Translations under genes and position numbers: made by a program | Notes under the pieces: generated by a model | Seen by the model: only the letters and a program-made list of their open reading frames with translations | What the model was told of the DNA's origin: nothing | The model's database searches: none | Part shown: piece after piece, positions 4,239-64,000 of the stretch | Numbering within the stretch: position 1 is the first letter of the stretch | How the letters are laid out: each line of letters opens with the position of its first letter | Assembly (NCBI GenBank): GCA_020850535.1 | Contig: JADZEM010000187.1 | Coordinates: 151,840-215,839, forward strand | Source of the DNA: Chloroflexota bacterium | Lineage (GTDB): Bacteria > Chloroflexota > UBA6077 > JACCZL01 | Reading direction: 5' to 3' | DNA: 64,000 nucleotides

Positions 4239-4280
4239 ACGGCGCGGCTGGCCGCGCTCCGACCGCCGGCCGCGTTGGTC

Positions 4281-6410: not shown

Positions 6411-6415
6411 GCCAT

Positions 6416-18671: not shown

Positions 18672-18672
<1 letters not shown>
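17620..18672 (+). CDS. trpS: tryptophan--tRNA ligase
   Basis: Class I aaRS HIGH-like (GKLHLGHYVG) and KMSKS motifs with the TrpS-specific layout. Confidence 0.9.
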
Positions 18673-20860
<2,188 letters not shown>

Positions 20861-20864
20861 GGCG

Positions 20865-21896: not shown

Positions 21897-22699
21897 TGAT
21901 CCTCGACGACATCCTCGCCAACAAACGCAACGAGGTTGCCGAGCGGCTGGCCCGCGTCCCGCAGGCGGAGCAGGCCGCCCGGGCGGCCGCCGCCGCGCCG
22001 GCCCGCGACTTCCTGGGGGCGCTGCGCCGGCCCGGCGTCTCGATCATCTCGGAGATCAAGCGGCAGTCGCCGGCCAAGGGCGCGCTGCGGCTCGACATGG
22101 ACGCCCCGACGATGGCCCGGACCTACGCGGCGGCCGGCACATCCTGCATCTCGGTCCTCACCGACGAGAAGTACTTCAAAGGCTCGGACGCCGACCTCAC
22201 CGCCGTGCGCGAGCGGGTCACCGTCCCGGTCCTGCGCAAGGACTTTGTCGTCTCGCCGTACCAGGTCTACGAGGCGCGGGCCATCGGCGCAGACTGCGTG
22301 CTCTTGATCGTCCTGGCGCTCACCCCCGACGAGATCGTCAGCACGAGCGCGCTGGCAACGTCGCTCGGGATGGCCGCGCTGGTGGAGGTCCACACCGAGG
22401 ACGAGTTGCGGATCGCCCTGGACTGCGGCTCGGAGCTGATCGGCATCAACAACCGCGATCTGACCCGCATGGTCACCGACGTAGCGACCACCGCGAAGCT
22501 GCGACCGCTGGTCCCGGCCGGCGTCACCCTCGTCAGCGAGAGTGGCATCCGGACCGCCGAGGACATCGCCATGCTGCGCGATCTCGGCGTTGATGCCGCC
22601 CTGATCGGCGAGTCGCTGGTCACGGCCCCGGACGCTGGCGACCTGCTGCGGAGCTTTCTGGCAGCCGGCGCACCGCTTCCCACCCGGACGCCCGCATGA
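21896..22699 (+). CDS. trpC: indole-3-glycerol phosphate synthase
   Basis: ISEIKRQSPAKG...ISVLTDEKYFKGS motifs. The ATG overlaps the trpD stop; the long N-terminal extension in the track ORF is rejected. Confidence 0.85.
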   Translation: MILDDILANKRNEVAERLARVPQAEQAARAAAAAPARDFLGALRRPGVSIISEIKRQSPAKGALRLDMDAPTMARTYAAAGTSCISVLTDEKYFKGSDADLTAVRERVTVPVLRKDFVVSPYQVYEARAIGADCVLLIVLALTPDEIVSTSALATSLGMAALVEVHTEDELRIALDCGSELIGINNRDLTRMVTDVATTAKLRPLVPAGVTLVSESGIRTAEDIAMLRDLGVDAALIGESLVTAPDAGDLLRSFLAAGAPLPTRTPA

Positions 22700-23323
22700 G
22701 CCGGACCCGCGTCAAGATCTGCGGCATCAAGACGGTCGAGCAGGCCGCCATGGCGCTGGAGGCTGGAGCCGACTTCCTCGGCTTCATTTTCTACCCGCCG
22801 AGCCATCGGTACGTCGCGCCGCGGACGGTGGGGGAGATCGTGGCGGCGGCGCGGTCGCGCTTCGGCGGGCCAGACCGCTGGCAGGCGGTCGGCGTCTTCG
22901 TCGACGAGCCGCTGGAGGTCGTCCAGTCAACCGTGCGAACGGCCGGGCTGGACTTCGCGCAGTTGTGCGGAGCAGAAGTTGCCGCCTACGCGGCTGCCGT
23001 CGGCTCACCGGTGATCCGCGTGGTGCACGTCGATGGCAGCGGCCAGCCGCAAGCCTCGACCGTCGCCGCCGACCACGGGGCTGCCCGCCTGCTGCTCGAC
23101 GCCAAGGCCGACGGCCAGTACGGCGGCACCGGCACGACCTATCCCTGGCCGGCCGTACGAGCCGCCGCCGCCGAGGCGTTCCTGGCCGGCGGCCTGACGC
23201 CCGGCAACGTGGCCGAGGCGATCGAGGCGACGCGCCCCTGGGCCGTGGACGTCAGCAGCGGCGTGGAGTCGTGCCGGGTGAAAGACCCGGACCTGATTCG
23301 CGCGTTCATCTCGGAGGTCAGAC

Positions 23324-24552
<1,229 letters not shown>

Positions 24553-24556
<4 letters not shown>

Positions 24557-25374
24557 GCGCCCAGAATCGGATCGACCGGGCCTTTGCCGGCCTCAAGCAG
24601 GAGGGGCGCATCGGGCTGTTCCCCTACCTGACGGCCGGCTACCCGGACCGGGCCGCCTGCGTGCGGCTGCTGCGGGTCATGGCCGACGCCGGCGCGGACG
24701 CGTTCGAGCTTGGCATCCCGTTCTCGGACCCGCTGGCCGACGGCGTCACGATGCAGATCACCAGCGCGAAGTCGCTGGCGCAGGGGACCACCCTGGCGGA
24801 CGCCTTCGACATCGTGGCCGAGTTCCGGCAGACGCACGACACGCCCATTGTGATGATGAGTTACGTCAATCCATTGATGGCCTACGGCTTCGAACGGCTC
24901 TGTGCGGACGCCGCGCGCATCGGCGTGGACGGATTCATCGTCCCCGATATGCCGCTGGAGGAGGCCGCCGAGCTGGCCGACGCCGCCCGGCAGCACGGCC
25001 TGCACTACGTCTACTTCCTGGCCCCGACCAGCGACGCCGGCCGGATCGAGGCGGTCGGCGGGCAGTCGAGCGGCTTCATCTACTGCGTGGCGCTCGTCGG
25101 CACCACCGGCGCTCGCTCGGAGCTGTCGGCGGAGCTGCCCGACTTCCTGGCTCGCGCCCGCGCCGCGACTGCGACGCCGCTGGTGGTCGGCTTCGGCATC
25201 TCGACGCCGGCCCACGTCGCGCGGCTGGTCGGGATGGCGGACGGGGCCATCGTGTCGAGCGCCATCGCCAACCTGATCGAAGCCACGCCACCCGAGCAGG
25301 TTGAGGCTGCCGTCGACGAATTCGTGCGCCAGCTGCGGGCCGCCACGGCCGGCACGACGGCGGCCACACGTTGA
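24553..25374 (+). CDS. trpA: tryptophan synthase alpha chain
   Basis: TrpA signature [11 protein letters not shown] / [13 protein letters not shown]. Confidence 0.9.
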
Positions 25375-25423
25375 CTCGCACCTGCGAGGAGGCCCTCACG
25401 CCCAGGCCGGCGAGTGCAAGACG

Positions 25424-26215
25424 GTGACCGTCAGCCGCCGACCGGCCCCGCCCGTCCTCCAGCTCGGCGAGTTCTCCGGGCCGCTCGACCTGCTGCTGAC
25501 GCTGGTCGAGCGGCGGCGGCTGCCCATCGCCGAGCTGAGCCTGGTGGCCGTCGCGGATCAGTATCTCGCGCAGGTGCGCTCGCTCAACGAGGTCGACCCG
25601 GACCTGCTCTCGGAGTTCCTGGCGATTGCCGCCCGCCTGCTCCTGCTAAAGTCGCGGTCGCTGCTGCCGGCCATCGAGCCGCCGGCCCCGCCCGAGCTGG
25701 CCGAGGAGACAGACGGCGCGGAGCTGGTGCGTCGGCTGGAGGCATACCGCTCGTTCAGGGCGCTGGCCGAGGCGCTCGGACGGCTCGACGCAGCCGGCCT
25801 CTCGTCGTACGGGCACGGCGCACACAAGCTTGATCTGCCGCCGGAGTCAGTCGCACTCCAGGCGATTGCCCCAGAGATTCTCCGCTCGCTCTACCTCGCC
25901 ATCGAGAAGCGGCGCAATCCCGGCACGGCTGACGAGGAGACCATCCGCCCGCGTATCAGCGTGGCCGAGCGGCTGTTCCTGCTGCGCGGCCTGCTCACCA
26001 CCGAGAAGCGCATCAACTGGCAGGCCGTCTGCGGCGAGACGGTTGACGAGATCGTGGCGACGCTGCTGGCGGTGCTGGAGCTGGTCCGGCGCGGCGAGAT
26101 AGTGATCGTACAGTCAGCCCTGTTCGGGCCGATCACGCTCGAAGCCGGCGACCAGCCGTCGATACCGGTCGGGGACGACGCTCTCCCCAGCGAGTCCGAG
26201 CTCGCGGGTCAGTAG
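25424..26215 (+). CDS. scpA: segregation and condensation protein A
   Basis: GEFSGPLDLLLTLVERRRL and EFLAIAARLLLLKSRSLLP kleisin ScpA motifs. Start codon uncertain: GTG 25424 chosen, because the ATG at 25301 overlaps trpA by 74 nt. Confidence 0.7.
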   Translation: MTVSRRPAPPVLQLGEFSGPLDLLLTLVERRRLPIAELSLVAVADQYLAQVRSLNEVDPDLLSEFLAIAARLLLLKSRSLLPAIEPPAPPELAEETDGAELVRRLEAYRSFRALAEALGRLDAAGLSSYGHGAHKLDLPPESVALQAIAPEILRSLYLAIEKRRNPGTADEETIRPRISVAERLFLLRGLLTTEKRINWQAVCGETVDEIVATLLAVLELVRRGEIVIVQSALFGPITLEAGDQPSIPVGDDALPSESELAGQ

Positions 26216-45643: not shown

Positions 45644-47815
45644 CTAGCGGCCCGGCTCGCCAGCCGGCGCGACCAGCTCGCCGGCAACGGCCGGCGGCGC
45701 GACCACCACCGGGGCCGGTGCGCGCTCCGGGTACTCGATGCGCGGATGGTACATGCCGATCAGGATGGCCCGGAAGGCGTCCTTGATCCGTTGCACGTCC
45801 CGCAGCGTCAGGTCGCAGTCGTCAAGCTGCCCCTCGGACACGCGCCCCATCACCAGCTTCTCGACCAGGTTCGTGATCGCCTCAGCAGAGTGGTCGCGGC
45901 TGGCGCGGGCCGCCGCCTCGACCGAGTCCGCCATCATCAAAATCGCGCCTTCCTTGGTCTGCGGGCGCGGACCCGGGTATTTGAAGCGCTGTGGGTCTGG
46001 CGGGTGCTGCCCGGTCGAGGCCGCCGCATCGACCGCCTGGTCGTAGAAGAAGCTCACCAGGCGGGTGCCGTGGTGCTGCGGGATCAGCTCGCGGACGGCC
46101 GGCGGCACCCCATACTGCTCGCACAGCTCGACGCCGTCCCGCACGTGCGCCCGCACGATGTCGGCGCTGACTTCCGGCTCCAGCGTCTCGTGGACGTTCT
46201 CGCCACCGGCCTGATTCTCGACGAAGAAGTACGGTCGGCGCAGCTTCCCGATGTCGTGGTAGTACGCTCCGACGCGAACCAGGAGCGGGTCGGCCCCGAC
46301 TTCCTCGGCGGCGCGCTCGGCGAGATTGCCGACCATGATGCTGTGGTGGTAGGTGCCGGGCGCTTCCATGAGCAGGCGGCGCAGCAGCGGCTGGGTCGGA
46401 TTTGCCAGCTCCAGGAGCTGCATGGTCGTCGTGATGCCGAACAGGCGGCCCAGCACATAGGTCGCGCCGAGGGCCAGCGTGGACGAGACCACGCCGTTCA
46501 CGCCGCAGAACGCGGCGATCCGCGCAAGCGTCCAGACATCCTCACCGCGCTGGGCGAGCTGGAACGCGACGACCACGGCGATCTGGGTGAGCGCCACCAG
46601 GAGTCCGGCGACGAAGAAGACGTGCAGGCGTTCCCGCCGCCAGACCGCCCCCGCCGCCACCACACTGGTCGCGAGCGCCAGGGTCGCGGCCTCCAGCGAC
46701 GTGCCCGCCACGAAGCCAACCAGCACCCCGAGCAGCGCGCCGATCACAATGGCGAGGCGGCCGTCGATGAGCGTCGCGATGAGCATCGCGACGGCCGGCA
46801 GCGGGAAGGCGTAGATGAGGATCGGGAACGACGGGAGCACGAACTTCGCCGACACCACCGTCACAATCACCAGCAGCGCGATCAGGCCGAGGCTCCGATC
46901 CTGGGTGGCGAGGTTCTGGTGGAACGCCACGATGTAGGCCGCGATCATCGACATCGTCAGCACCGCGAATGCCGCCGCCGCCCCGACCTTCCGCCAGTCG
47001 GTCGTCGGGTTGCGTAGACCCAGCAGGTCGAGCTTCTCGATGTCCGCCGCCCCGACCACCTGGCCTTCGCGCAGCACCGTCTCATCCCGCTCGACGGTGA
47101 CCTGCACCGGCGCGACGGCCTCTTCCGCCTCCTTACGCAGCCGCTGCGTCGCTTCCTTGTTCGGGACAAGGTTCCCACCGACGAACCGGCTGGCAAGATC
47201 GACCGCCAGCAATCGCTCGGACTCGGTCAACTGGTCGCTGACCCGCAGCGGCAGCTCCCGGACCACCTCCGAGACGCGCCATTCTGGCAGCTTGTCCTTG
47301 AGCGCTTCCCAGAGCAGGCGTTGCGCCTCGCTGGAGACCGAGTACCAGCGGGCATCGTCAAGGGCGGCCAGGGCTGTGATCGACGGCTCCTCAAGTGGCG
47401 GCTGCCCGAGGCGCGACAACTGGCCTTTCCGCTGGTCGATGCTCTGCCCCGGGGCGTTCCGCGCCGCCGAGATGCTCTGCAGCAGGCTGTTCAGACCGGC
47501 CCGCTGACGCTGCACCATCGACGGGTCGATCTCGACGACTTCCTGGACCCGCTCGGCCGCCTTCTCACGCTCGGCCTTGGTGAGGACCGGGCTGGTATAG
47601 GTCAGCTTGCGCGGCGAAGAGATGTTGCGAAGGCTGACTTCGCCCTCGCGGACCTCGACGGCCAACGGCACGATGTTGACGCTCAGCAGGCCCCAGACCA
47701 CCAGCGAGAGCAGCCCGAACACGCCGGCAATACGCAACGCGCTGCGAGGCGCCTCCTGGCGAGCGCGCGTGCGCGAGCGGCGCTGGCGCGGCAGCGAGCC
47801 ACTGACAGAACTCAT
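45644..47815 (-). CDS. pgpH: 7TM-receptor HD-GYP/HDIG phosphohydrolase (PgpH/YqfF family, candidate c-di-AMP phosphodiesterase)
   Basis: Extracellular domain, 7TM block, and C-terminal HD domain (HHSIMVGNLAE..., HDIGK). Conserved neighbourhood with ybeY and dgkA. Confidence 0.8.
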   Translation of the reverse strand: MSSVSGSLPRQRRSRTRARQEAPRSALRIAGVFGLLSLVVWGLLSVNIVPLAVEVREGEVSLRNISSPRKLTYTSPVLTKAEREKAAERVQEVVEIDPSMVQRQRAGLNSLLQSISAARNAPGQSIDQRKGQLSRLGQPPLEEPSITALAALDDARWYSVSSEAQRLLWEALKDKLPEWRVSEVVRELPLRVSDQLTESERLLAVDLASRFVGGNLVPNKEATQRLRKEAEEAVAPVQVTVERDETVLREGQVVGAADIEKLDLLGLRNPTTDWRKVGAAAAFAVLTMSMIAAYIVAFHQNLATQDRSLGLIALLVIVTVVSAKFVLPSFPILIYAFPLPAVAMLIATLIDGRLAIVIGALLGVLVGFVAGTSLEAATLALATSVVAAGAVWRRERLHVFFVAGLLVALTQIAVVVAFQLAQRGEDVWTLARIAAFCGVNGVVSSTLALGATYVLGRLFGITTTMQLLELANPTQPLLRRLLMEAPGTYHHSIMVGNLAERAAEEVGADPLLVRVGAYYHDIGKLRRPYFFVENQAGGENVHETLEPEVSADIVRAHVRDGVELCEQYGVPPAVRELIPQHHGTRLVSFFYDQAVDAAASTGQHPPDPQRFKYPGPRPQTKEGAILMMADSVEAAARASRDHSAEAITNLVEKLVMGRVSEGQLDDCDLTLRDVQRIKDAFRAILIGMYHPRIEYPERAPAPVVVAPPAVAGELVAPAGEPGR

Positions 47816-48673: not shown

Positions 48674-49144
48674 ATGGAGATCCTGGAACGGCTTCTGCCC
48701 TCGTACTGGTGGACCGATCCCTCGGACGCGATTGGCGGGCCGCTGTGGGCGGCTTTCGCAGCGCTGCTCGGGCTGATGCTGGTGGCCGGAGTTGCCGCGT
48801 GGCTGTTGGCCCCACGCCTCGCGCCACACCACAGCCTGCACCGACGCCTGATCGTGCGGGCTGCGAAGTGGGTCGTGGGGTTTGCCGTCTGCGGGCTGTT
48901 CCTGCTGCTCTTCCGCTGGCAGCAGACGCCGTTCCTGTCCAGGCGGCTCTGGCTGTTCGTCTGGCTGGGGGCGGTGGTCGCCGCTGGCGTGTTCGCCCAA
49001 CGCTACCGCACGCGGACCTACCCGGAGGCGCTGGCCGCCTGGAACGACGAGGACCGCATCCGCCGGTACCTGCCGAAGCGCAGCCAGAGCGGCGGGCACC
49101 GGGGCGGCCACGCTCACCGCCCCAAGGGCCGCCGTCGCCGTTAG
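48674..49144 (+). CDS. hypothetical membrane protein with basic C-terminal tail
   Basis: Three hydrophobic helices. ATG 48674 chosen; the upstream part of the track ORF is low-quality. Confidence 0.35.
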   Translation: MEILERLLPSYWWTDPSDAIGGPLWAAFAALLGLMLVAGVAAWLLAPRLAPHHSLHRRLIVRAAKWVVGFAVCGLFLLLFRWQQTPFLSRRLWLFVWLGAVVAAGVFAQRYRTRTYPEALAAWNDEDRIRRYLPKRSQSGGHRGGHAHRPKGRRRR

Positions 49145-49270: not shown

Positions 49271-50341
49271 ATGTCGATGGACCCGATGGGCGGCCAATCA
49301 GGGTATGCACCTGCGGGTCAGCAGGGAGGCGACGGCAGCGGCGCCTGTGGCACGTGCGGACGCCCGCTCCCGGCCCCTGACCTTGAGGCGGTCGCATCCG
49401 GCATCGACCAGACGCTGAGCGTCGAGACCGGCAAGATGGTGGCCCGCACAGCCTGGGCCGGGCGCGCCCCTGACGGCATGATGGATTCGCTGCTCTCGTT
49501 CATGCCGGGCGTCAAGGCGCGCCGGCAGCTCTGGGAGCGCGGTCAGGCCCTCTGGACCGAGCGGATGACCCAGGCGATCTCCGGGCCGTGCGACGCCTGC
49601 CTGGGCGTCTCGCAGGGAGCGGCCAACCCCGGCCTCTCGGCGTCACCGTACGGCGGGCAGCAGCCGTACCAGCCCACCTACCAGCCCCAGGAGTATCAGC
49701 CCCAGGGCGCCGGCGCGCCGCCTGACACGCCGTATGGCGCAACATCGGTCATGCCGGGGTACGGCGCACCGGCCGGCCAGCCTCCGCTGGACGACGACAG
49801 CAGCAAGACGGCGATGGTCTCGCCGTACACGCCGTCGCCGCCAGCCACCGAAGACGAGGACAATGCCACGTCGGCGGTCCCGGCGTTCTTGAGCCACGCC
49901 GCCCAGTCGCCGGCGGCCCCGGCGAACCCGAACGTGGCATCGCAGCCGCCGGCCAGCGCGCCACCTCCACCGCCAGCGTACGAGGGGGACGAGCACGAGT
50001 CACACACGGTCATGCTGACCGTTCCACCCAACCTCAATCTCCGAGGCGGCCCCCGTCTGGTGGTGCTGGAAGGGCCGGTTCACGGTCGGCAGTTCACGCT
50101 CGGCCGCCAGTTGACCACCATCGGGCGCAGCATCGGGTGTCACGTGACGGTGGAGGCGGACATCGTCGGCTACGATCACGCCCGCGTGGTGCGCGGCGAC
50201 GGCGGCTGGCACGTCGAGCCGATTGGCGGCGCGGGTGAGACCTACGTCAACGACGATCTGGTGACGGCCCCACGGTCGCTGCGGAACGGCGACGTGATCC
50301 GCATCGGTCCCGCGCGCATGCGCTTCGAATCGGCGGGTTGA
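49271..50341 (+). CDS. FHA-domain protein with N-terminal Cys pair and Pro/Gln/Tyr-rich low-complexity region
   Basis: C-terminal FHA signature (TIGRS..CHV......VSR.HA......W.V.......TYVND). N-terminal CGTCGRP; the central PYGGQQPYQPTYQPQ region is low complexity. Confidence 0.7.
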   Translation: MSMDPMGGQSGYAPAGQQGGDGSGACGTCGRPLPAPDLEAVASGIDQTLSVETGKMVARTAWAGRAPDGMMDSLLSFMPGVKARRQLWERGQALWTERMTQAISGPCDACLGVSQGAANPGLSASPYGGQQPYQPTYQPQEYQPQGAGAPPDTPYGATSVMPGYGAPAGQPPLDDDSSKTAMVSPYTPSPPATEDEDNATSAVPAFLSHAAQSPAAPANPNVASQPPASAPPPPPAYEGDEHESHTVMLTVPPNLNLRGGPRLVVLEGPVHGRQFTLGRQLTTIGRSIGCHVTVEADIVGYDHARVVRGDGGWHVEPIGGAGETYVNDDLVTAPRSLRNGDVIRIGPARMRFESAG

Positions 50342-50345
50342 CCCG

Positions 50346-51404
50346 ATGATGATGCAGCCGCCCCGCTGCCCCACCTGCGGCAACGAGAACCCGCCGGAGT
50401 ACCCGCCCGAAGAGTATCCGTTCTGCATCGAATGTGGGGCGCAGCTTGGCCCGTTTCGACCGCAAGCGCCGCAGGATCCGTACAACCGGCCGCAGCTCGA
50501 CCAGTACGGCCGGCCGCAGCCCGGCGGCCCGCCGTACGACCCCTACGGGCAGCAGCAAGGGCCGTACGGCGGCCAGCAGGGTGGCTATGGACAGGGCAAT
50601 CCCGGCTACGGTCCGGGCCCCGGACCTACGCCGTACGGCGGCCAGGACCAACAACCGTATGGCGGTGGGCAGCAAAGTCCGTATGGAAACCCGTATGGCG
50701 GCGGTGGGCAGCAGCAGGGTGGCTATGGGCCGCCCGGACCGGCGCCGTACGGAGGCCAGGACCAGCAGCCGTACAGCGCACCGGCACCGGCCGCCGCTCG
50801 GCTCGTCCTCGAGAGTGGCGTCGGCAAGGTCGAGTACCCGCTTGACGCGCCCGTTGTGACGATTGGCCGCTCACGCTCGAACGATATCAGCCTTGAGGAT
50901 GCGCGGGTCTCCCGACATCACGCGCGCGTCGTGCGGCAGGATCGTGGGTACGCCGTCGAAGACCTCAACAGCCGCAACGGCACCCGCGTGGACGACCGCT
51001 CGGTGCGAGACAGCGTGCCGCTGGCCGAGGGGTCGGTCATCAAGATCGGGGACGCGGTCTTCCGGTTCACCCAGGCCGCGGCAGCAGCAGGCGGCGGGCA
51101 GCTTGGCGGCCGCCCATCGCCGGCGCCGTGGGGCAGCCCGATCCCCGGCCCGGGTGCGCCGGTCCCGCAGGCGGCTCCGGTGGTCTACATGTCAGCCTGG
51201 AGCCCGGTGCAGTGCCCCAACTGCCAGGGCATGCGTACGATGGTGCAGATCGTCTACGGGCCGGCGGCACAGACGCCGGGGGCGCAGGCCGCTGCGCGGC
51301 AGGGCCAGATCGTCCTGGGCGAAGGTCCGGGCCATCCAGAAGGGCCGAACGCGGAGTGCAGAGCCTGCGGCACGCGCGTTCGGATCGTGCAGTCCGGATC
51401 GTAG
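50346..51404 (+). CDS. FHA-domain protein flanked by N- and C-terminal zinc-ribbon motifs, with PYGGQ-type disordered repeats
   Basis: CPTCG...CIECG at the N-terminus. Central FHA (VTIGRSRSNDISLEDARVSRHHARVV...YAVEDLNSRNGTRVDD). CPNCQG...CRACG at the C-terminus. Nucleotide-level repeats encode PYGGQDQQPY. Confidence 0.75.
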   Translation: MMMQPPRCPTCGNENPPEYPPEEYPFCIECGAQLGPFRPQAPQDPYNRPQLDQYGRPQPGGPPYDPYGQQQGPYGGQQGGYGQGNPGYGPGPGPTPYGGQDQQPYGGGQQSPYGNPYGGGGQQQGGYGPPGPAPYGGQDQQPYSAPAPAAARLVLESGVGKVEYPLDAPVVTIGRSRSNDISLEDARVSRHHARVVRQDRGYAVEDLNSRNGTRVDDRSVRDSVPLAEGSVIKIGDAVFRFTQAAAAAGGGQLGGRPSPAPWGSPIPGPGAPVPQAAPVVYMSAWSPVQCPNCQGMRTMVQIVYGPAAQTPGAQAAARQGQIVLGEGPGHPEGPNAECRACGTRVRIVQSGS

Positions 51405-51472
51405 GCTGGCTGGCGGCGCGATGATCACCCTGGCACTTCAGACGCCATCCTCATGAGCGAGCGAGCGCCGGC

Positions 51473-52432
51473 ATGCTCGTCTTGATCGCGGACCCCGAAC
51501 CCTCGGCGCGCGCTGCCCTCCGCGCTGCGCTCGACCGCTTCGGCTACCGCTGCCAGGAGGTCGCAGACGGCGCGACCGCCTGGACCCACCTTGCCGACGG
51601 CTCGCCGGATGTGGTGCTGGTGTCCGCCGACCTCGCAGACGTGAGCATCCTGGAGCTGGCGACTCGCCTGCGCGCGCTCAAGCGCACCCCGGCCCCGTAC
51701 TTCGTCGCCCTGGTCAACGCGGACGATCCCGAGATGCTCCTCAGGGCGATGGGCAGCGGCGCAGACGACTTCCTGGCCCGCCCGTTTCACGACGAGCAGT
51801 TGCACGCCCGGATTCAGGTGGCAGAACGACTCCTGCTCCTGACGCGCCGGCTGCTGGATCAGGAGACGCAGCTCGAGCGCGCCCGCTACGCGCTGCGGGC
51901 GAGCGCGCGCACGGACGCGCTCACCAACCTCTGGAACCGCGTCCAGCTCACGGACGACCTGGAGCTGTTCCAGGGCCAGCTGCAGCGGTACGGCCACCGC
52001 TACGCCGCGATGCTCGTCAACCTCGACCGTTTCCGCGCCTACAACGAGGCGAACGGCCAGCTTGCCGGCGATGAGGTGCTGCGACTCATCGCGCAGACCG
52101 TCTCCGAGACGCTCAGGACCGGCGACCGCGCCTATCGCTACGCTGGCGACGAGATCGTGGTGCTGCTCCCGGAGCAGACGGCAGAGTCAGCCTGCATCGC
52201 CGCCGAGCGCATCCGCTCCGCCATCGAGCAGCTTCAGTTGCCCCACCAGGGAAATCAGCCCGCCGGCGTGGTCACGGTCAGCGCCGGCGTGGGCGCATTC
52301 CAGGCAGAGGGCACGCTCACATATGACGCGCTGCTCGGGTGGACCGAAGCGGCGCTGTTGCGGGCGCAGGCGAACGGCGGCAACCGCGTCGAGCTGAGCG
52401 ACCCGGCGACTGACGCCGCCGCGACGCCATAG
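51473..52432 (+). CDS. response regulator with REC domain and GGDEF-type diguanylate cyclase domain (variant AGDEI active-site motif)
   Basis: N-terminal receiver fold (DVVLVSADL...). C-terminal GGDEF fold with RYAGDEIVVLL in place of GG(D/E)EF, and an RxxD-like I-site context. Confidence 0.8.
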   Translation: MLVLIADPEPSARAALRAALDRFGYRCQEVADGATAWTHLADGSPDVVLVSADLADVSILELATRLRALKRTPAPYFVALVNADDPEMLLRAMGSGADDFLARPFHDEQLHARIQVAERLLLLTRRLLDQETQLERARYALRASARTDALTNLWNRVQLTDDLELFQGQLQRYGHRYAAMLVNLDRFRAYNEANGQLAGDEVLRLIAQTVSETLRTGDRAYRYAGDEIVVLLPEQTAESACIAAERIRSAIEQLQLPHQGNQPAGVVTVSAGVGAFQAEGTLTYDALLGWTEAALLRAQANGGNRVELSDPATDAAATP

Positions 52433-52488: not shown

Positions 52489-53697
52489 CTAGCTCGCGCG
52501 CGTGATCCGGACGTTTGCGTCGGCGCGCGAGATCAGGTCAGGCAGGAGCTTCGTGCCGAGTCCCGGGCCTTCCAACGGACGGATCGTACCATCGACCACC
52601 GGCGGCAGCTCGGTGACAAGGTTCGGGTAGACGCCGTGCAGGTACGCCCGCACCACCTCCTGGATGAAGACGTTCGGCACGGCGTAGTCGAGGTGAACGG
52701 CCGCCACCAGGGTGATCGGGCCGACGCAGTCGTGCGGCGCGATCGGCAACTGGTACGCCTCAGCCATCGTGGCGATCTTCCGCGCCTCGGACAAGCCGCC
52801 GACCCAGCCGATATCGAACATCACCACCGACAGCGCGCCCTTCTCGAACGCCTCGCGGAACTGCCACCGCGTGGACATCGTCTCGGAGGCCGTCGTCGGG
52901 ATGCGCGTGCTCTGGCGGAACTGGAGCAAGGCGTCCAGATTGTCCATGCGGACCGGGTCCTCAAACCAGAGCGGATCGTACTGCTCGACCGCCCGAGCGA
53001 TGCGCTGCGCGGCCGGCAGCCCGAACACCGAGTGCATCTCCAGCGCGATCTCGATCTTGTTGCCGACGGCCTTGCGGATCTTCTCGAACGGCTCGCAGCC
53101 CTTCACGATGTCTTCGGCTGAGATCTGGTGGCCGTTCGTGGCCGGCCCGAACTGATCGAACGGCCAGATCTTCATGGCCCGATACCCCTCGGAGAGGAGA
53201 TCGTGCGCCAGTTCGTCGGCCCGGTTCAGGAAGGCGTCGAGATCCTCGTACGGTCCCTCGCTGCGGCCATCCACGTAGTTAGCCGTCGAGCCGGCCGGCT
53301 TCTTTCCACCGTAGCGATAGCCAGCGCAGGTGTTGTAGACCCGCAGCGACTCGCGCGTCGGCCCGCCCATCAGCCGGTAGAGCGGCAAGTTCATGGCCTG
53401 GCCCGCGATGTCCCAGAGGGCCACGTCGATGCCCGAAAGCCCGCGCATCTCGGCGCTTCGCATCGAGAGCCCGCCGCGCACGGTGCTGGCGAACAGGCTG
53501 CTCCAGAGCGCCTCGATGGCGAGCGGATCCTTGCCGAGCAGGAACGGCGCGGCCACCTCGTGGACGTAGGTCTGGACGGACGCGGACCCGAAGAACGTAT
53601 CGCCCAGCCCGATCAGCCCCTCGTCGGTGTGAATCCGCACAAACGTGATCTGCGGATAGGCTTCGATATTGACGGTTTCGAGTGCAGTGATCTTCAC
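52489..53697 (-). CDS. enolase-superfamily (mandelate racemase/muconate lactonizing enzyme family) sugar-acid dehydratase
   Basis: MR/MLE N-terminal capping domain and barrel with KxK...D...E...D metal-ligand pattern (e.g. ...EDPV...). D-galactonate/L-fuconate dehydratase-like length of 402 aa. Confidence 0.8.
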   Translation of the reverse strand: MKITALETVNIEAYPQITFVRIHTDEGLIGLGDTFFGSASVQTYVHEVAAPFLLGKDPLAIEALWSSLFASTVRGGLSMRSAEMRGLSGIDVALWDIAGQAMNLPLYRLMGGPTRESLRVYNTCAGYRYGGKKPAGSTANYVDGRSEGPYEDLDAFLNRADELAHDLLSEGYRAMKIWPFDQFGPATNGHQISAEDIVKGCEPFEKIRKAVGNKIEIALEMHSVFGLPAAQRIARAVEQYDPLWFEDPVRMDNLDALLQFRQSTRIPTTASETMSTRWQFREAFEKGALSVVMFDIGWVGGLSEARKIATMAEAYQLPIAPHDCVGPITLVAAVHLDYAVPNVFIQEVVRAYLHGVYPNLVTELPPVVDGTIRPLEGPGLGTKLLPDLISRADANVRITRAS

Positions 53698-57000: not shown

Positions 57001-57217
57001 CAGGGCGATTGCATGACAAGCACGTCCTGCGACCTCGTCGGGGGCTGAAGTCCCCGCCTGCCATCATGCTGTCGCTCTGCGACGCTCCTGTCTCACGTGG
57101 CGATGGTTGATCCGGTCCTTCGTCGCGCAGCGACTGAATGACGGTAGGCGGGGACTTCAGTCCCTGACCGCCCGATTCACCGTCTTCAGGAACACCAGAG
57201 ATCATGCAATCGCCCTG
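57001..57217. mobile_element. MITE-like non-autonomous element: 217 bp, perfect 16-bp terminal inverted repeats CAGGGCGATTGCATGA, internal nested palindromes, flanked by 9-bp direct repeat CGACGGAGA
   Basis: TIRs at 57001-57016 and 57202-57217 are exact reverse complements. Flanking CGACGGAGA at 56992-57000 and 57219-57227 is a candidate target-site duplication. No ORF of its own. Confidence 0.55.
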
Positions 57218-57370
57218 CCGACGGAGAGACGGCCGGGCGATCGCGCTGACCGAACCGGACGGCTGCGGCGGGTTCGATCGACGAGTTGCTATCATCAGCC
57301 CCGATGCGGGAAGACCGTTCTGGTGGCGTGTGCGCCTGCCAACATCGATCGCGAGCGGGCGGACGCGCAG

Positions 57371-59572
57371 ATGGCAGCAACTGACAGCGCTCTCGGGCGT
57401 GCCCGCGCGGTGGCCATCCCGAGTCTGCGCCCGCTGACCGCCCGCGACGCCGTCTTCGCCGCCGGGCTGCTGCTGGCGCTGGCCGGAGCGGCCGTCGTGC
57501 AGACGCCCTGGCTGGCGGCCGGCGCGCTGGGCTGGGCGCTCGGCCTCCTGGTCATGGTGGCCAGCACCACCTATCGCCAGACAATCCGCGATCTGCTCGC
57601 CATCCGCATCGGCCGCCTGGAAGCCGTGAGCCTCGGCGTCGTGCTTGCCTGCGCCGCCGCCGCCCGCCTGTGGTCGCTGGCCGACCTGCCGCTCGGGATC
57701 CACATCGACGAGGCCGTGATGGGCCTGATCGCCCGGGACATCCTCCAGGGTCGAGGGCCGCACCCGTTCGGCTTCGCGTTCATCTCCGATCCCGCCCCGC
57801 TCATGTACGTCAAGGCGGCCGCAATGGCCCTCTTCGGCCAGGGGATGTTCCCGCAGCGGCTGGTGGCAGCCCTGGCCGGCATCGGGAGTGTGGCCGCGCT
57901 GTGGGTCTTCGCACGCCCACTCTTCGGGAGCGGCGTCGCGCTGCTCGCCACGACCCTCCTCGCCGTCACCGTGTCACACATCTTCTTCAGCCGCCTCGCC
58001 CTCACCATCATCGAGATCCCGTTCCTGGGACTGCTGGCTGTCGCGCTGATCTGGCGCGGCCTGCGAACGGAGCAGGTGGCCTGGCACACCCTCGGCGGCG
58101 TCGCGCTCGGCTTCGCACAGTACGCCAACTTCGGGGCGCGGGCGTTCGTGTTGGCAGTGGCCGCGCTCTATCTGGTCATGATGGCCACGCACTACCGCTC
58201 GTGGTGGCCGATCTTCCGTGGCGGCGTGCTGGCAGCCATCGGGATGCTGGCCGTGCTCGGGCCGCAGCTTGCCTATGTCCGCGACGATCCGTACCAGTTG
58301 TACGACCGGCTCCAGTTTCGGTCGGTCTTCCGGCGTTGGGATCAGGCGACCGAGATCCACCAGACCACCGACCCGGTTCGGGTGATGCTTGGACAGGCGA
58401 TCATCAACGTGCGGGCCTTCGTCGACGTGCCGGATCGCGGCACCTTCTTCGAGTTCGCCCACGAGCCCCTGCTGTACGGGCCGGTGGCGGCGCTGCTGGT
58501 AGTGGGGGTCGCCGTGGCGCTCTGGCGCGTCGGCCAGCCCCGCTACGCCTGCCTCTTCCTGATCTCCGGCGGCGTGCTGCTGGGCGGCATCATGAGCGCC
58601 GGCGCGCCGCAGTTTCACCGCCTCGTCGCGCTGACGCCGGTGGCCTGCCTGTTTGCGGCCATCGGACTGCTGACGGTGTGCCAGGGGATCGACCGCGTCA
58701 TCGGGCGATTCCGGCCCTCGCTGGTCGGCGTCGTGCCGCTGGCGATGTCGCTGCTGCTGGTCGGCGCGACAACTGCCGACACCGCCAACGCGATGCTGGT
58801 GCGCTACCCGGCCGAGCTGCCCTGGCAGCCACACTCGGCCTGGGCGCGCTGGGTGGCAGAGCAGCCAGCCGGCCGGACGGTGTATGTCGCTGGCGCACCG
58901 GAGGTGCGGGCCTGGGACGAGCGGCTGCGCTTCCTGGCGGAATCTCGCCCGCTGACCGACCTGACCAACCTCAGCGAGGCGGTCCCGGCGCTGTTGGCCG
59001 ATCCGCGGCCGGCCACCATCGCGCTCAGCCCCCGGCTGGCGGACTGGCAGCCAACCCTCGAGCAGATGATCCCCGGCGCGACGTTCGGGGCGGCGCTGGG
59101 GCCAGACGGCAAGGTCGCCATCGTCACCGTGGACGTGCCGGCCGGCCCGCGCCCGGCCGCCGAGCCGCGCGGCCTGCAAGGCGTCCTGCTGATCGACGAC
59201 AGCCAGGGCGAGGAAGAGCGCCATCGCCTCGACGCCGTGCTGGCCTTTCGCGAGGCGTCGGCCCTGACCGGCAACCGGCCGTTCGACGTGACCTGGACCG
59301 GCAGCCTGCTGGCGGACCGGGACGGGGCCTACCGCTTCGAATGTCTCACCGATGGCGTGGCCGAGTTGACGATTGACGGCAAACCCGTGCTCAGCGCAAA
59401 ACGGGCTGCCGAGCCACGGGTCGCGCGGGGCGAGGCCCGACTGACTCCCGGCCAGCACGCCGTGACGGTCACCTACAGCTACCAGCGCGGCCCCGGCACG
59501 TTCGAGCTGCGCTGGCAGCCGCCGGACGGCGCGCGCACGCTCATCCCGCCATCGGCGTTTCGGCCGGAGTAG
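57371..59572 (+). CDS. glycosyltransferase family 39 (ArnT/PMT-like) membrane protein fused to a C-terminal PA14 domain
   Basis: About 12 TM helices with the GT39 DE-like loop (IHIDEAV). C-terminal beta-rich domain with the PA14-like pattern (GAYRFECLTDGVAELTIDGKPVL...GQHAVTVTYSYQRGPGTFELRW). ATG 57371 chosen downstream of the MITE. Confidence 0.7.
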   Translation: MAATDSALGRARAVAIPSLRPLTARDAVFAAGLLLALAGAAVVQTPWLAAGALGWALGLLVMVASTTYRQTIRDLLAIRIGRLEAVSLGVVLACAAAARLWSLADLPLGIHIDEAVMGLIARDILQGRGPHPFGFAFISDPAPLMYVKAAAMALFGQGMFPQRLVAALAGIGSVAALWVFARPLFGSGVALLATTLLAVTVSHIFFSRLALTIIEIPFLGLLAVALIWRGLRTEQVAWHTLGGVALGFAQYANFGARAFVLAVAALYLVMMATHYRSWWPIFRGGVLAAIGMLAVLGPQLAYVRDDPYQLYDRLQFRSVFRRWDQATEIHQTTDPVRVMLGQAIINVRAFVDVPDRGTFFEFAHEPLLYGPVAALLVVGVAVALWRVGQPRYACLFLISGGVLLGGIMSAGAPQFHRLVALTPVACLFAAIGLLTVCQGIDRVIGRFRPSLVGVVPLAMSLLLVGATTADTANAMLVRYPAELPWQPHSAWARWVAEQPAGRTVYVAGAPEVRAWDERLRFLAESRPLTDLTNLSEAVPALLADPRPATIALSPRLADWQPTLEQMIPGATFGAALGPDGKVAIVTVDVPAGPRPAAEPRGLQGVLLIDDSQGEEERHRLDAVLAFREASALTGNRPFDVTWTGSLLADRDGAYRFECLTDGVAELTIDGKPVLSAKRAAEPRVARGEARLTPGQHAVTVTYSYQRGPGTFELRWQPPDGARTLIPPSAFRPE

Positions 59573-59650: not shown

Positions 59651-60064
59651 TCAGGCGTCGGGGCTGATGCCCAGCGCCGCCAACCGCTCGTCCACGAAGC
59701 GTCGGACGTCGCCGGCCACTTCCAGCGCGCGCGCCGAGTCGGTCGCTTCGTACGCATCGCCCGGGACGCCGCCGGGCAGCGTGGTAGGATAGCGCGCCCC
59801 GAGGAAGTGCTTGTCGAGCAGCACGGCCACCGTCTTGATCAGATCAAAAGACGGATCGAGCGCCAGCGCGTCCTCGCAGAGGTCGGCCAGGGCATGCCCC
59901 CAGACCCGCTCAGCCCCGCGCGCCAGCAGGTACGCGGTGACAGCTTTCTCGGCGGCCTGGTGGCTGAGGAAACAGGCCAGCGCGTGCCGGCCGCTCTCGG
60001 CCACAAAGCCCGCGTCCGCGAGATCGAGCGCCGACTGCCGGAGCCAGGCCCTGACCGGTCGCAT
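59651..60064 (-). CDS. HEPN domain protein (toxin component of a HEPN-MNT module)
   Basis: HEPN four-helix pattern with conserved Arg/His region (AERVWGHAL). Start either ATG 60064 or GTG 60091; lies immediately downstream of the MNT gene. Confidence 0.7.
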   Translation of the reverse strand: MRPVRAWLRQSALDLADAGFVAESGRHALACFLSHQAAEKAVTAYLLARGAERVWGHALADLCEDALALDPSFDLIKTVAVLLDKHFLGARYPTTLPGGVPGDAYEATDSARALEVAGDVRRFVDERLAALGISPDA

Positions 60065-60071
60065 CCTGCTG

Positions 60072-60410
60072 TCAGCCAAGCAGCGCCTCACCTTCGGTCA
60101 TCGCGTGCTGAAGCAGCGGGTCAGACTCGGCGCACTCGTCGACCTCGTCGGGCGTGTAGACGAGGTAGCGCGTCCCGACTCGCGGTCGCAGGTGGCTCTC
60201 CCAGAACTCGCCGCGCCGCTGGAACGGCTCGTCAGTCTCTTGCACGATGACCAGCTCAAGCTCGGTTTCAGGATCGACCTGCCCGCGCGCGAACTCCCCG
60301 ACGATCCAGGTGGCCATCGCACCGTAGGGCGGAGCCTCCTGGGCAAATCGGCGAGCCTCAGCCTCGAGCTGCTGCCGACGGTGATCTGAGAATCCGAACA
60401 TCATCGGCAC
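60072..60410 (-). CDS. minimal nucleotidyltransferase (MNT, antitoxin component of HEPN-MNT module)
   Basis: GEFARGQVDPETELELVIV, i.e. the G(S/E)xARG...D.E nucleotidyltransferase motif. Start GTG 60410 or ATG 60404. Confidence 0.7.
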   Translation of the reverse strand: MPMMFGFSDHRRQQLEAEARRFAQEAPPYGAMATWIVGEFARGQVDPETELELVIVQETDEPFQRRGEFWESHLRPRVGTRYLVYTPDEVDECAESDPLLQHAMTEGEALLG

Positions 60411-60435
60411 GAAGGAGACTCCAGAGAAAAAGAGT

Positions 60436-60527
60436 GGCCCTCACCCCACCGACTGTGGGAGTGACGGGGGACGGCCGTCCTGGGCGCTATGACCTGCCCC
60501 TCACCCCAACGACTGCGGGAGTGAGAC
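60436..60527. repeat. two tandem copies (59-bp period) of a small hairpin-forming unit gcccctcacccca(c/a)cgactg(t/c)gggagtga
   Basis: Direct repeat seen at 60436-60466 and 60495-60527. Each unit is itself an imperfect palindrome. Confidence 0.55.
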
Positions 60528-61805: not shown

Positions 61806-62978
61806 TCAGGCGCCCGCGGCCGTCTTGAACGGGCGAAGCTGCTCGTAGGTGCCGCCAACGATCTCGGTCGGGTCGAGGCCGAGCCACTGCTCCAACAGCG
61901 TGCCGTAGACGCCCCGGAAGTCGAAGGTGTGCCGCAGATCCTCGCCGTTCAGCCAGTCGGCCGGCTTCACGGACGGATACTCGGAGTAGAGGCCGCCCTG
62001 GATGCGGTCGCCGATCAGGAACGCGCCGCCGCCCGAGCCGTGGTCGGTGCCGCTGCCGTTGTCCTTCATGCGGCGGCCGAACTCGGTGAAGACCAGCACC
62101 GTCACGTTGTCCGAGGCGTTGTGCTCGCGCAGATCCTGCATGAACGCCCGCAGCGACTGGGTCAGCTCCGAGAGCAGGCGGAAGTGCGACGGGTTCTCCT
62201 GCGCGTGGTAGTCGTACCCGCCGTGCTGGGTGTAGAAGATCCGCGTGCCGAGGTTGGCCGTGTGGACCCGCACCACGTCGCGCAGGGACTTGCCGATGGC
62301 ACAGTCGGGATACTGCACCGAGGACGTGTACAGCCTCGGGGCCTCCTTCAGCATATCTGCGCCGGCCAGCACGCCGTTGCCGGTGTGCGCGAGGTAGTCG
62401 AGCACCATACCGGTGCCGATGGCCGGGGTGTACATGCGCTTGAAGAAGGAGAGGTCTTCCTGGCGCTGCTCGGCCGTCTGAATCGAGTTCAGCAGGCCGT
62501 AGTTGTCCAGGTTGTCGACCGAGGTTGCCGTGACGCCCGGCGCGGCCAGCGCGCGCGGCAGGCCACGCCCGAAGCTGACCGCCGTCAGCGGGTTGGAGCC
62601 CTGCGGATCGATCTCACGAACGACCTTCGCCAGCCAGCCCTCGGTGGCGATCTTCAGCGGCTCGCAGGTGTGCCAGATGTCCATCGCCCGGAAGTGCGAG
62701 CGGCTGGAGTTCTCGTAGCCGATGCCCTGGATGATGGCGACATCGCCCGCGAGGTACATGTCGCGCAGCGGGGCAGCTGCCGGGTGGAAGGCGAGCGTGT
62801 CTGTGAACGGAAGCTGATCCTTCTTGGCAACGTGCACCAGCGGACGTGCGTCGTAGTACGCGCCCTCGGTGAACGGGATGACGGTGTTCATGAAGTCGTT
62901 GCCGCCCGAAAGCTGCACGACGACCAGAACCGGATCCTTCTTCTTCGCGTGGCCGTTGGTGTGGCCGCTGACTGCCAT
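61806..62978 (-). CDS. DUF1501 (sulfatase-like) family protein
   Basis: VVVQLSGGNDFMNTVIP start typical of DUF1501, alkaline-phosphatase-like core, C-terminal GSGTDHGSGG. Start at the internal ATG 62978, or 63005. Confidence 0.75.
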   Translation of the reverse strand: MAVSGHTNGHAKKKDPVLVVVQLSGGNDFMNTVIPFTEGAYYDARPLVHVAKKDQLPFTDTLAFHPAAAPLRDMYLAGDVAIIQGIGYENSSRSHFRAMDIWHTCEPLKIATEGWLAKVVREIDPQGSNPLTAVSFGRGLPRALAAPGVTATSVDNLDNYGLLNSIQTAEQRQEDLSFFKRMYTPAIGTGMVLDYLAHTGNGVLAGADMLKEAPRLYTSSVQYPDCAIGKSLRDVVRVHTANLGTRIFYTQHGGYDYHAQENPSHFRLLSELTQSLRAFMQDLREHNASDNVTVLVFTEFGRRMKDNGSGTDHGSGGGAFLIGDRIQGGLYSEYPSVKPADWLNGEDLRHTFDFRGVYGTLLEQWLGLDPTEIVGGTYEQLRPFKTAAGA

Positions 62979-63068
62979 GAGGTCTGTCCCTCCTGCCGCC
63001 TGCATCGGCGGGCTGGTCGAGAACCGAGGCCTCGGGCCGTTGGCGGCCCGGGGCTGTTGTACGAACGA

Positions 63069-64000
63069 TCAGGCGAACTGGTACTCGCGGGAGGCGACCG
63101 TCAGGCGCAGCAAGCGGCCCACGCGCTCCTCACTCTTCTGGCGCTCGTCGTCCGAGCCGAAGCGCAGCTCGCCGTCGCGGGCGGCCAGCTCGACCAGCGC
63201 CTGCCGGGTCTCCGGCTGCACCTGCAACGGCCCGGCCAGGTCGAGCACGGTGTCCACCAGCTCCTCGGGGCCGAGCGGCCGGCCGTAGTCCGCCAGCCGT
63301 CGGATGATCGACTGCGGGCCGGGTTTCTTGACGTCGCTCACCTGGCTCACGGCGAAGTTGACGCGCTCGGTGAGCGTGCCGCCGTCGATCCACTCCTTGC
63401 CGGTGTGCCAGCCCTCCACGGTGGGCGGGTCCATCAGCGTCTGGCCCATGACGCGGGTCGCGCCGTCGAACGCCACGAGGCCCGGGTCCACCCCACGATG
63501 GGTGCCGGCCAGCTTGATGACGCCGGCCACCAGCTCGATGGGGCACTTGACCCGCTGGAACTGCGCGGCCTTGAAGAAGTCGCTGTTAAACAGCACGCGC
63601 ATGACCGAGCGGATGTCCGCATCCGAGTCCAGGAACGCCTTCGAGAGGGTAGCGATGGCCTCAGGGTCGCGCGGCTCCTGGACGCTCCAGGCCGGCACCT
63701 GCGCCTCATCCGCGACGAAGAAGTTGTACAGGTGGCGGCTCACGAAGCGAGCCGTCGCCGGCTGGCGGCAGATGATATCGACGATATCCTCGCCGTTGAA
63801 CTTGCCGGTGTTCCCGAGGAATGTCTTCTCGCTGTTGTCGTGGTCTTCCGGCTTGAACACGAACTTCGAAGCGTAGTGCCCGTACGGGTACAGCGGGATC
63901 GGCTGCTCGAACGTCCAGCCCGTGAAGGCGCGGGCCACGTTCTTGATGTCCGTCTCGGAGTAGTTGCCGATGCCCATCGAGAACAGCTCGAGGATCTCGC
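63069..64000 (-). CDS. DUF1800 family protein, C-terminal portion (continues beyond the window end)
   Basis: Open frame to the window edge. Conserved DUF1800 C-terminal region; canonical pairing with the downstream DUF1501 gene. Confidence 0.7.
   Translation of the reverse strand, partial: EILELFSMGIGNYSETDIKNVARAFTGWTFEQPIPLYPYGHYASKFVFKPEDHDNSEKTFLGNTGKFNGEDIVDIICRQPATARFVSRHLYNFFVADEAQVPAWSVQEPRDPEAIATLSKAFLDSDADIRSVMRVLFNSDFFKAAQFQRVKCPIELVAGVIKLAGTHRGVDPGLVAFDGATRVMGQTLMDPPTVEGWHTGKEWIDGGTLTERVNFAVSQVSDVKKPGPQSIIRRLADYGRPLGPEELVDTVLDLAGPLQVQPETRQALVELAARDGELRFGSDDERQKSEERVGRLLRLTVASREYQFA

Follow-up and report, generated by a model that had tools for sequence, protein, structure and literature searches.

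Two FHA-domain proteins encoded next to a receiver-GGDEF protein raise the question of whether the latter makes cyclic di-GMP (c-di-GMP) or senses it, and whether the three gene products act together. Such a locus occurs in a stretch of 64,000 nucleotides from a Chloroflexota bacterium (GenBank assembly GCA_020850535.1, contig JADZEM010000187.1, positions 151,840 to 215,839), hereafter called the window, whose G+C content is 65-73%. Three plus-strand open reading frames (ORFs), named g1, g2 and g3, encode proteins of 356, 352 and 319 amino acids respectively (Table 1). Annotated proteins from a Chloroflexota contig of 218,587 bp (P0001 and P0126) match g2 and g3 with 100% identity. An original prediction, made from the sequence of the window, had described two tandem FHA proteins followed by a REC-GGDEF regulator, and the ORF list and Pfam confirmed both their positions and these domain assignments. 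The locus is best read as a lineage-specific cytoplasmic module, belonging to an uncultured clade within the Chloroflexota, that serves in signalling or in scaffolding. In this module g3 would be a c-di-GMP receptor devoid of catalysis, its pseudo-receiver being of the adaptor type, while g2 as a reader and g1 as an adaptor or substrate would form a phospho-Thr-dependent pair, possibly docking on g3; we assign to this explanation a probability of about 0.5.

The receiver and GGDEF domains of g3

Alignment of g3 with 55 orthologues from metagenomes and two metagenome-assembled genomes, which are about 310 amino acids long and share 47-71% identity with it, gave a family of 56 sequences, and a set of 64 more distant canonical REC-GGDEF proteins was used for comparison. 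Pfam returned a GGDEF domain (PF00990) with an E-value of 1.3e-35 and 123 bits against a cut-off of 23.8, and the TIGR00254 model scored 114.6 against 37.4. The signature motif reads A224-G-D-E-I228, as originally noted; this variant is peculiar to the present genome, the consensus of the family being GGDEL. On the PleD numbering, g3 departs from the active site (A-site) at six positions, namely D327N (residue N183), H340Q (Q196), G368A (A224), F372I (I228), K442Q (Q299) and R446G (G303), and retains N191 (N335), D200 (D344), R222, D226 (at the E370 position) and E227. According to the published residue roles, the two Mg ions are held by D327, the backbone of I328 and E370, the guanine by N335 and D344, and the phosphates by K442 and R446, with D327, N335 and D344 reported as essential (PMC7288161). 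The features of an active cyclase are split in g3, which lacks the motif, D327, K442 and R446 and keeps N335, D344 and the acidic residue at the E370 position.

The same erosion was observed throughout the family, as each of the 56 members carried at least two A-site deviations. R446 was replaced by Gly in 50 members, H340 by Gln in 48 and F372 by Leu in 43, and some subclades had drifted to HGTEV, DDSEV, DGSEL or ADDSI. Among the 64 canonical homologues, D327, H340, G368, K442 and R446 were kept in 62-64 sequences and F372 in 55. The inhibitory site (I-site) of g3 consists of R215-T-G-D218 together with R222 (R366) and R246 (R390). Equivalents of R359, D362 and R366 were present in 56/56 family members, and both R390 and the whole RTGD motif in 55/56. 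An I-site better kept than the A-site is the pattern described for GGDEF domains that act as receptors, PopA and SgmT among them, and the loss of K442 and R446 was used as an argument that SgmT is inactive (PMC3509222). The g3 protein is predicted to be inactive because of D327N, K442Q and R446G and the family-wide pattern of conservation, not because of AGDEI alone.

The receiver domain (Response_reg, PF00072) was recognized by Pfam with an E-value of 8.4e-16 and 58.6 bits against a cut-off of 30.2. In g3, S51 (51623-51625) stands at the position of the phospho-acceptor Asp, V81 at that of the conserved Thr and R103 at that of the Lys. Among the 51 family members with a residue in the acceptor column, we counted Ser in 34, Ala in 8, Pro and Gly in 3 each, and Cys, Thr and Trp once each, with Asp in none. 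The Thr column held Val (34) or Ala (9), and also Ile, and the Lys column held Arg (45), otherwise Trp or Gln, and never Lys. All three hallmarks of a functional receiver (acceptor Asp, Thr/Ser and Lys) are thus missing from g3, and the domain is, as judged from its sequence, a pseudo-receiver that is not phosphorylatable on Asp. Two other acceptors were considered and rejected: the column of D53 is variable (G18, D7, A7 and others), and the Ser at the acceptor position is an unsuitable FHA target since FHA domains read phospho-Thr and a Thr occurs there in only 1 of the 51 sequences.

The best match of g3 in the PDB was PleD (2.5e-36), and phmmer aligned residues 12-306 of g3 with residues 162-448 of PleD, corresponding to the D2 adaptor and the GGDEF domain, I-site and R390 included. 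PleD also has a phosphorylatable D1 domain, whereas g3 lacks D1 as well as D327, H340, F372, K442 and R446; the alignment thus indicates for g3 the layout of PleD minus its phosphorylatable first receiver. The scores of g3 were below the equivalog cut-offs of both PleD (NF007135, 157.1 against 474) and SiaD (NF038266, 113.6 against 290).

A likeness is also found in the c-di-GMP receptors PopA, SgmT and ActA, which share with g3 the GGDEF fold, an RxxD motif five residues before the signature, the secondary Arg and the loss of catalytic residues, K442 and R446 being among those lost in SgmT; in PopA and ActA, as in g3, a receiver is paired with the GGDEF domain. Unlike these proteins, g3 has a single pseudo-receiver without acceptor Asp, and its A-site is partly eroded (AGDEI/GGDEL) rather than wholesale. 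Beyond the domain level the sequences are unrelated, the receptor role of g3 is a prediction, and FHA neighbours are not described in the cited account of these receptors. The original prediction had presented g3 as a cyclase under the control of its receiver, unusual in a single motif, an assignment against which the pseudo-receiver, the six catalytic-site changes and the invariant I-site argue; the degenerate receptor that it mentioned in parentheses is better supported, the A-site being eroded and the I-site retained. We also considered a Hypr-type GGDEF domain making cyclic GMP-AMP (cGAMP), a class told by the residue at the D344 position, and discarded it since the D344 equivalent is Asp in 53/56 family members.

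The FHA proteins g1 and g2

The FHA domain of g2 was detected by Pfam (PF00498) at residues 171-235 with an E-value of 5.9e-19 and 68.7 bits against a cut-off of 20.7, and was modelled by AlphaFold with a predicted local distance difference test (pLDDT) score above 90. Its signature, G174 R175, S189 R190 H192 and S209 N211 G212 T213, was unchanged throughout the 44 orthologues aligned, and no other part of the protein is nearly as well conserved as this domain. With the roles of the pocket residues taken as for DgcB (PMC6733907) and ArnA (PMC6509490), g2 carries the complete phospho-Thr-binding signature. The best PDB matches of the domain were EmbR (3e-14), FhaA, GarA/OdhI and DgcB.

The same family was found in g1 at residues 282-346 (E-value 1.7e-10, 41.6 bits against the same cut-off), and this domain also folds confidently, with pLDDT above 90 and, in a Foldseek comparison with OdhI, a template modelling (TM) score of 0.88 and a root-mean-square deviation of 1.5 Å. 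Its pocket is degenerate: g1 retains G285-R286 and H303, while G300 replaces the Ser of the SxxH motif and G322 the Asn of NG. In the 13 orthologues of g1 the Ser position is occupied by Gly, Ala, Glu or Asn and the Asn position is never Asn, so that the phospho-Thr-binding signature is absent from g1. The original prediction had assigned phospho-Thr binding to both FHA domains, and the alignments uphold it for g2, which keeps every signature residue, and speak against it for g1, which lacks Ser and Asn family-wide. On the basis of these residues, three of the four signalling domains of g1, g2 and g3 are degenerate. Foldseek comparison of both FHA domains with OdhI and GarA gave TM scores of 0.75-0.92, in keeping with the 11-stranded beta-sandwich of this fold, and the two domains are 39% identical to each other without gaps, suggesting that g1 and g2 are probably old paralogues. 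When the whole g1 and g2 models were submitted to Foldseek, matches were returned for the FHA domains alone and none for the N-terminal domain of g1 or the C-terminal domain of g2.

Zinc ribbons had originally been proposed for both proteins. In g2 the expected Cys pairs do occur at both ends, at residues 8-11/27-30 and 290-293/338-341, the latter two being 44 residues apart. The N-terminal segment is plausibly a small zinc ribbon, with sub-threshold Pfam scores for DZR (PF12773) and DUF7577 (18.3 against 27.3 and 18 against 28) and pLDDT values of 79-89. The C-terminal domain was modelled with pLDDT 80-94 and gave no sequence match in the PDB. In g1, a compact ribbon was not found: its two pairs, CGTC (residues 26-29, 49346-49357) and CDAC (107-110, 49589-49600), lie 77 residues apart and flank a domain of five helices (38-53, 59-63, 70-74, 79-104 and 108-116; pLDDT 82-96). 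The start of g1, MSMDPMGG, coincides with the starts of its orthologues, the most divergent of which lack the cysteines and keep the helical core. This N-terminal domain matched no Pfam family and no PDB sequence. A word-index homology search with it gave 5 fragments; its rarity was established by an exhaustive profile search, which returned 23 representative clusters among 1.84e9 proteins, nearly all of them g1-like.

The long Gly/Pro/Gln/Tyr tracts of the two proteins are likewise disordered in the models, as had been proposed, both linkers having pLDDT below 50. The linker of g1 could not be aligned across orthologues except for two islands, ATSAVP (residues 199-204, 49865-49882) and ESHTVM (243-248, 49997-50014), which follow the pattern acidic-x-x-Thr-x-x-hydrophobic(-Pro) and are found in most orthologues, sometimes duplicated; we infer from this pattern that they are candidate targets of a kinase and of an FHA domain. 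The linker of g2 is a Tyr-spaced repeat of Pro, Gly, Gln and Asp, in which the Tyr persists across orthologues and the repeat unit differs. There are two copies of the decapeptide PYGGQDQQPY (residues 96-105 and 134-143), whose DNA counterparts (50619-50664 and 50733-50778) share 85% identity over 46 nucleotides, in line with the DNA-level repeats reported originally; Tandem Repeats Finder (TRF) was silent on them because the two copies are not head-to-tail.

A separate motif, RA(D/E)TP(Y/F)LP, was observed about 12 residues before the FHA domain in 22 of 65 g2 orthologues (among P0130, P0138 and P0141-P0190). By analogy, it could be a self-ligand like the tails of GarA or DgcB. As a part of the present locus RADTP[YF]LP was rejected, since the g2 protein of the window does not contain it.

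Table 1. Position and nature of the features of the g1-g2-g3 locus and of its upstream neighbour.
Feature	Coordinates	Strand	Basis
g1: Cys4-stapled helical N-domain, disordered linker, degenerate FHA	49271-50341	+	ORF, Pfam, AlphaFold, orthologue alignment
g1 N-terminal orphan domain, residues 24-116	49340-49618	+	AlphaFold
g1 disordered linker, rich in Pro, Gln, Tyr and Ala	49619-50047	+	pLDDT <50
g1 FHA domain, degenerate	50048-50332	+	Foldseek, alignments to OdhI/GarA and g2
g2: putative N-terminal zinc ribbon, Tyr/Pro/Gly/Gln repeat linker, canonical FHA, C-terminal Cys4 domain	50346-51404	+	ORF, Pfam, AlphaFold, 44 orthologues
g2 putative N-terminal zinc ribbon, CPTC-x15-CIEC	50367-50435	+	sequence, conserved in orthologues
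g2 low-complexity PY-repeat linker	50451-50780	+	pLDDT <50
g2 FHA domain, canonical	50790-51074	+	invariant residues in 44 orthologues
g2 C-terminal conserved domain, residues ~279-349, with CPNC and CRAC	51180-51392	+	near-invariant alignment columns
g3: predicted pseudo-receiver, then degenerate GGDEF with intact I-site	51473-52432	+	Pfam, PDB match, family analysis
g3 predicted pseudo-receiver	51473-51826	+	family column counts, alignment with PleD D2
g3 GGDEF domain: N183 (52019-52021), Q196, RTGD (52115-52126), AGDEI (52142-52156), Q299..G303 (52367-52381)	51908-52390	+	sequence, published residue roles
Small hydrophobic protein, 156 amino acids, very basic C-terminal tail	48674-49144	+	upstream neighbour

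Gene order and the competing explanations

The untranslated gaps measure 4 nucleotides between g1 and g2 and 68 between g2 and g3; the spacings of 5 and 69 nucleotides given in the original prediction are correct as end-to-start differences and not as untranslated gaps. The three genes probably form one operon, and the 4-nucleotide gap suggests that g1 and g2 are probably translationally coupled. A promoter and terminator scan returned no terminator-like site between the three genes and no promoter either, this being a weak test that is uninformative for a GC-rich genome.

The order g1-g2-g3 was found again in 12 related loci (L001/2, L003, L007, L008, L009, L010, L011, L012, L015, L016, L018 and the P0052 contig), and g2 lies directly upstream of g3 in 12 of the 13 g3 loci with upstream sequence. 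A metagenome scan yielded mostly short contigs, and the g3 family was present in only 2 of 185,579 GTDB species representatives. The whole neighbourhood is syntenic, running from CsbD to YbeY, 7TMR-HD, YqeY, the small hydrophobic protein, the module, MR_MLE and an amidohydrolase. Across these relatives the module genes are 47-59% identical, and the flanking 7TMR-HD (45644-47815) and MR_MLE (52489-53697) genes 80-91%; the module evolves much faster than its flanks.

The small hydrophobic protein encoded upstream of g1, which matched nothing in Pfam or PADLOC, is probably a membrane protein as judged from its sequence. Its homologue stands directly 5' of g1 in L001, L003, L016, L018 and L020 and directly 5' of g3 in L017, and it adjoins the module upstream in every related locus, even in those without g1 and g2 or without g3. 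This protein may belong to the module or lie outside it.

According to the explanation preferred here, g3 would bind c-di-GMP made elsewhere and then change partners or localisation, in the manner of PopA and SgmT. The canonical pocket of g2 would make this protein the phospho-Thr reader, and g1 would be an adaptor since it has lost the phosphate-binding Ser and Asn. The Thr islands in the linker of g1 would be phosphorylated by a Ser/Thr kinase whose gene lies elsewhere, and would serve the FHA domain of g2 as ligands. The analysis establishes which domains are present and how they fold, which residues have been lost and how these losses are conserved, and the order of the genes. From this we infer that g3 binds c-di-GMP without catalysing its synthesis and that g1 is phosphorylated and bound by g2, any contact of the pair with g3 and the cellular output being equally conjectural. 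Joining all these steps in a single phospho-Thr-gated c-di-GMP sensing hub is very unlikely to be correct in full. In such a hub a distant Ser/Thr kinase would phosphorylate the g1 islands, the g2 FHA domain would read them multivalently, the Tyr/Pro/Gly/Gln low-complexity linkers would drive clustering, and g3 would be recruited or released according to the level of c-di-GMP.

Several observations weigh against the preferred explanation. No Ser/Thr kinase or phosphatase is encoded nearby: the catalytic-loop motif HRDxKxxN was absent from all window ORFs of at least 150 amino acids, and Pfam detected no Pkinase or PP2C family among about 40 window ORFs, in agreement with what had been stated originally. 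The g1 islands could be ordinary linear motifs without a role in phosphorylation. As for the coupling between the FHA proteins and g3, the original prediction that FHA scaffolds feed into c-di-GMP signalling finds adjacency in its favour, maintained in the 12 related loci and broken in three, as L017 carries the small protein and g3 without g1 and g2, and L019 and L020 carry g1 and g2 without g3. The close relatives share the wider synteny, so that the conserved order carries little independent weight, and the gap of 68 nucleotides between g2 and g3 also counts against an FHA-GGDEF link; the functional connection, for which gene order is the evidence, is thus weakly indicated. Some caution is needed with the calls of presence and absence, such as the missing g3 in L019. 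In L018 (ERZ25039588, 617 kb) and L019 (ERZ25039504, 186 kb), several short pieces were called for genes found whole in the other related loci, and tblastn matches to them were split, which suggests that these assemblies are frameshift-rich.

These departures in gene content would be expected if the FHA pair and g3 were unrelated neighbours, with g1 and g2, possibly together with the small, probably membrane-bound protein, forming their own phospho-Thr module, and g3 being an independent c-di-GMP gene in the same syntenic slot. The small protein is in fact retained with g1 and g2 in L019 and L020 and with g3 in L017, the gap of 4 nucleotides between g1 and g2 contrasts with that of 68 before g3, and the flanks are syntenic in all these genomes. 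However, g1, g2 and g3 share one strand and no terminator-like site separates them, a weak test as said above, g2 directly precedes g3 in all but one of the g3 loci in which this could be seen, and the three genes have evolved at a similarly fast pace compared with their flanks. On balance, we consider the independence of g3 from its neighbours rather doubtful.

A different objection concerns catalysis, as g3 might be a working, perhaps slow, cyclase in which the pseudo-receiver serves as a dimerisation handle and which g1 and g2 switch in a phospho-Thr-dependent manner, following the logic of DgcB split over separate genes. In most members of the g3 family the motif is GGDE[LF], and N335 and D344 are retained, G-G-D-E being conserved in 42/56 and the R366 equivalent in all. 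Leu or Ile at the Phe position also occurs in 9 of the 64 canonical homologues, and an intact I-site is normal in active cyclases too. Vibrio cholerae VCA0965 is active with AGDEF, so that Ala at the first position is compatible with activity (PMC3974145), and DgcB demonstrates that an FHA domain is able to activate a GGDEF domain (PMC6733907). Adjacent genes on the same strand, moreover, may be co-transcribed. Weak or altered catalysis by g3 may therefore persist, and these points count against a purely receptor-type protein. On the other hand, the full catalytic set is present in no family member, with R446G and H340Q occurring at the frequencies given above, and the g3 protein of the window has in addition lost, by D327N, a Mg ligand reported as essential and carries K442Q. 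The HGTEV and DDSEV subclades keep a perfect I-site, so that catalysis is not under selection. A functional cyclase is thus unlikely, and a non-catalytic receptor remains our preferred assignment for g3.

Genomic setting and relation to known systems

The chromosomal setting, surveyed by Pfam on about 40 window ORFs, is ordinary and includes a GlgE alpha-glucan pathway, a trp operon, ScpA, PurA and a ybeY/7TMR-HD/dgkA cluster. No Rfam family was found anywhere in the window, c-di-GMP riboswitches included, and a reading of the locus as a defence system was rejected on the basis of zero PADLOC matches. On the minus strand, 949-7942 is the GlgE-type cluster, with a maltokinase N-cap protein, a TreS-like alpha-amylase, GlgE and a GH57/DUF3536 protein. 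The tryptophan biosynthesis operon (18048-25374, plus strand; Pfam trpE, G, D, F, B and A) is followed by ScpA at 25277-26215. The plus-strand gene at 57107-59572 codes for an 821-amino-acid membrane glycosyltransferase of the PMT_2 type to which a PA14 domain is fused at the C-terminus, an uncommon combination, and a PMT_2 gene occupies the same relative position in L001. The minus-strand region 59651-60440 contains a HEPN-domain protein (59651-60097, E-value 6e-19) and a small overlapping ORF upstream (60072-60440), which may constitute a HEPN/nucleotidyltransferase toxin-antitoxin pair. Finally, adjoining DUF1501 and DUF1800 proteins are encoded at 61806-63998 on the minus strand, the second extending past the window end.

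Each element of the locus has precedent, namely degenerate GGDEF receptors, the PleD D2 adaptor, FHA-controlled GGDEF domains and regulators combining a zinc finger with an FHA domain. In Anabaena, FraH contains a double zinc ribbon, a Pro-rich linker and an FHA domain. In the DgcB protein of Bdellovibrio an FHA domain is fused to a GGDEF domain, and the phospho-Thr tail of the protein itself activates it (PMC6733907; PDB 6hbz, 6hc0 and 6hc1). Like the present locus it brings together a phospho-Thr reader and a GGDEF domain, and both g1 and g2 matched its FHA domain significantly in the PDB; unlike the locus, DgcB is fused and its GGDEF domain is active, whereas here the genes are separate, the GGDEF domain is degenerate and the coupling is putative. 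ArnA from Sulfolobus (PMC6509490) resembles g2 in that a Cys4 zinc module at the N-terminus is followed by a linker and then by an FHA domain at the C-terminus, the last being a PDB match (5a8i). Outside the FHA domain the two proteins are unrelated, g2 adds a C-terminal Cys4 domain and Tyr-rich repeats, and the partner of ArnA is the vWA protein ArnB rather than a GGDEF protein.

The closest FHA domains to those of g1 and g2, both in sequence and in fold, belong to GarA/OdhI and FhaA/FhaB of Actinobacteria, and the GarA switch resembles the idea of a Thr motif placed N-terminally to the FHA domain. Unlike these systems, the locus has no 2-oxoglutarate dehydrogenase or cell-wall genes nearby and g1 has no phospho-Thr pocket. 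The scores of g1 and g2 were also far below the equivalog cut-offs of FhaB/FipA (NF049868; 59.5 and 76.7 against 125) and OdhI (NF041660; 38.5 and 49.2 against 200). The locus is new in the way its parts are combined, in the degeneracy of both domains of g3, in the pairing of a canonical with a degenerate FHA domain and in its orphan Cys4 domains.

The locus opens no long-standing question, as it consists of familiar domains in a narrow uncultured clade and the coupling between its parts is conjectural; it does bring to attention two small conserved Cys4 domains without family assignment. Should the complete hub exist, second-messenger and phospho-signals would be integrated by mostly catalytically dead domains together with an orphan Zn-stapled helical domain. 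If the receptor explanation is correct, a Chloroflexota example would be added to the few GGDEF proteins whose role is to sense c-di-GMP instead of making it. In this example the receiver, too, would lack its phosphorylation site, and the neighbours would be a canonical/degenerate pair of FHA proteins. The locus would then hint that c-di-GMP signalling and Ser/Thr phosphorylation engage in cross-talk in a phylum little studied for either.

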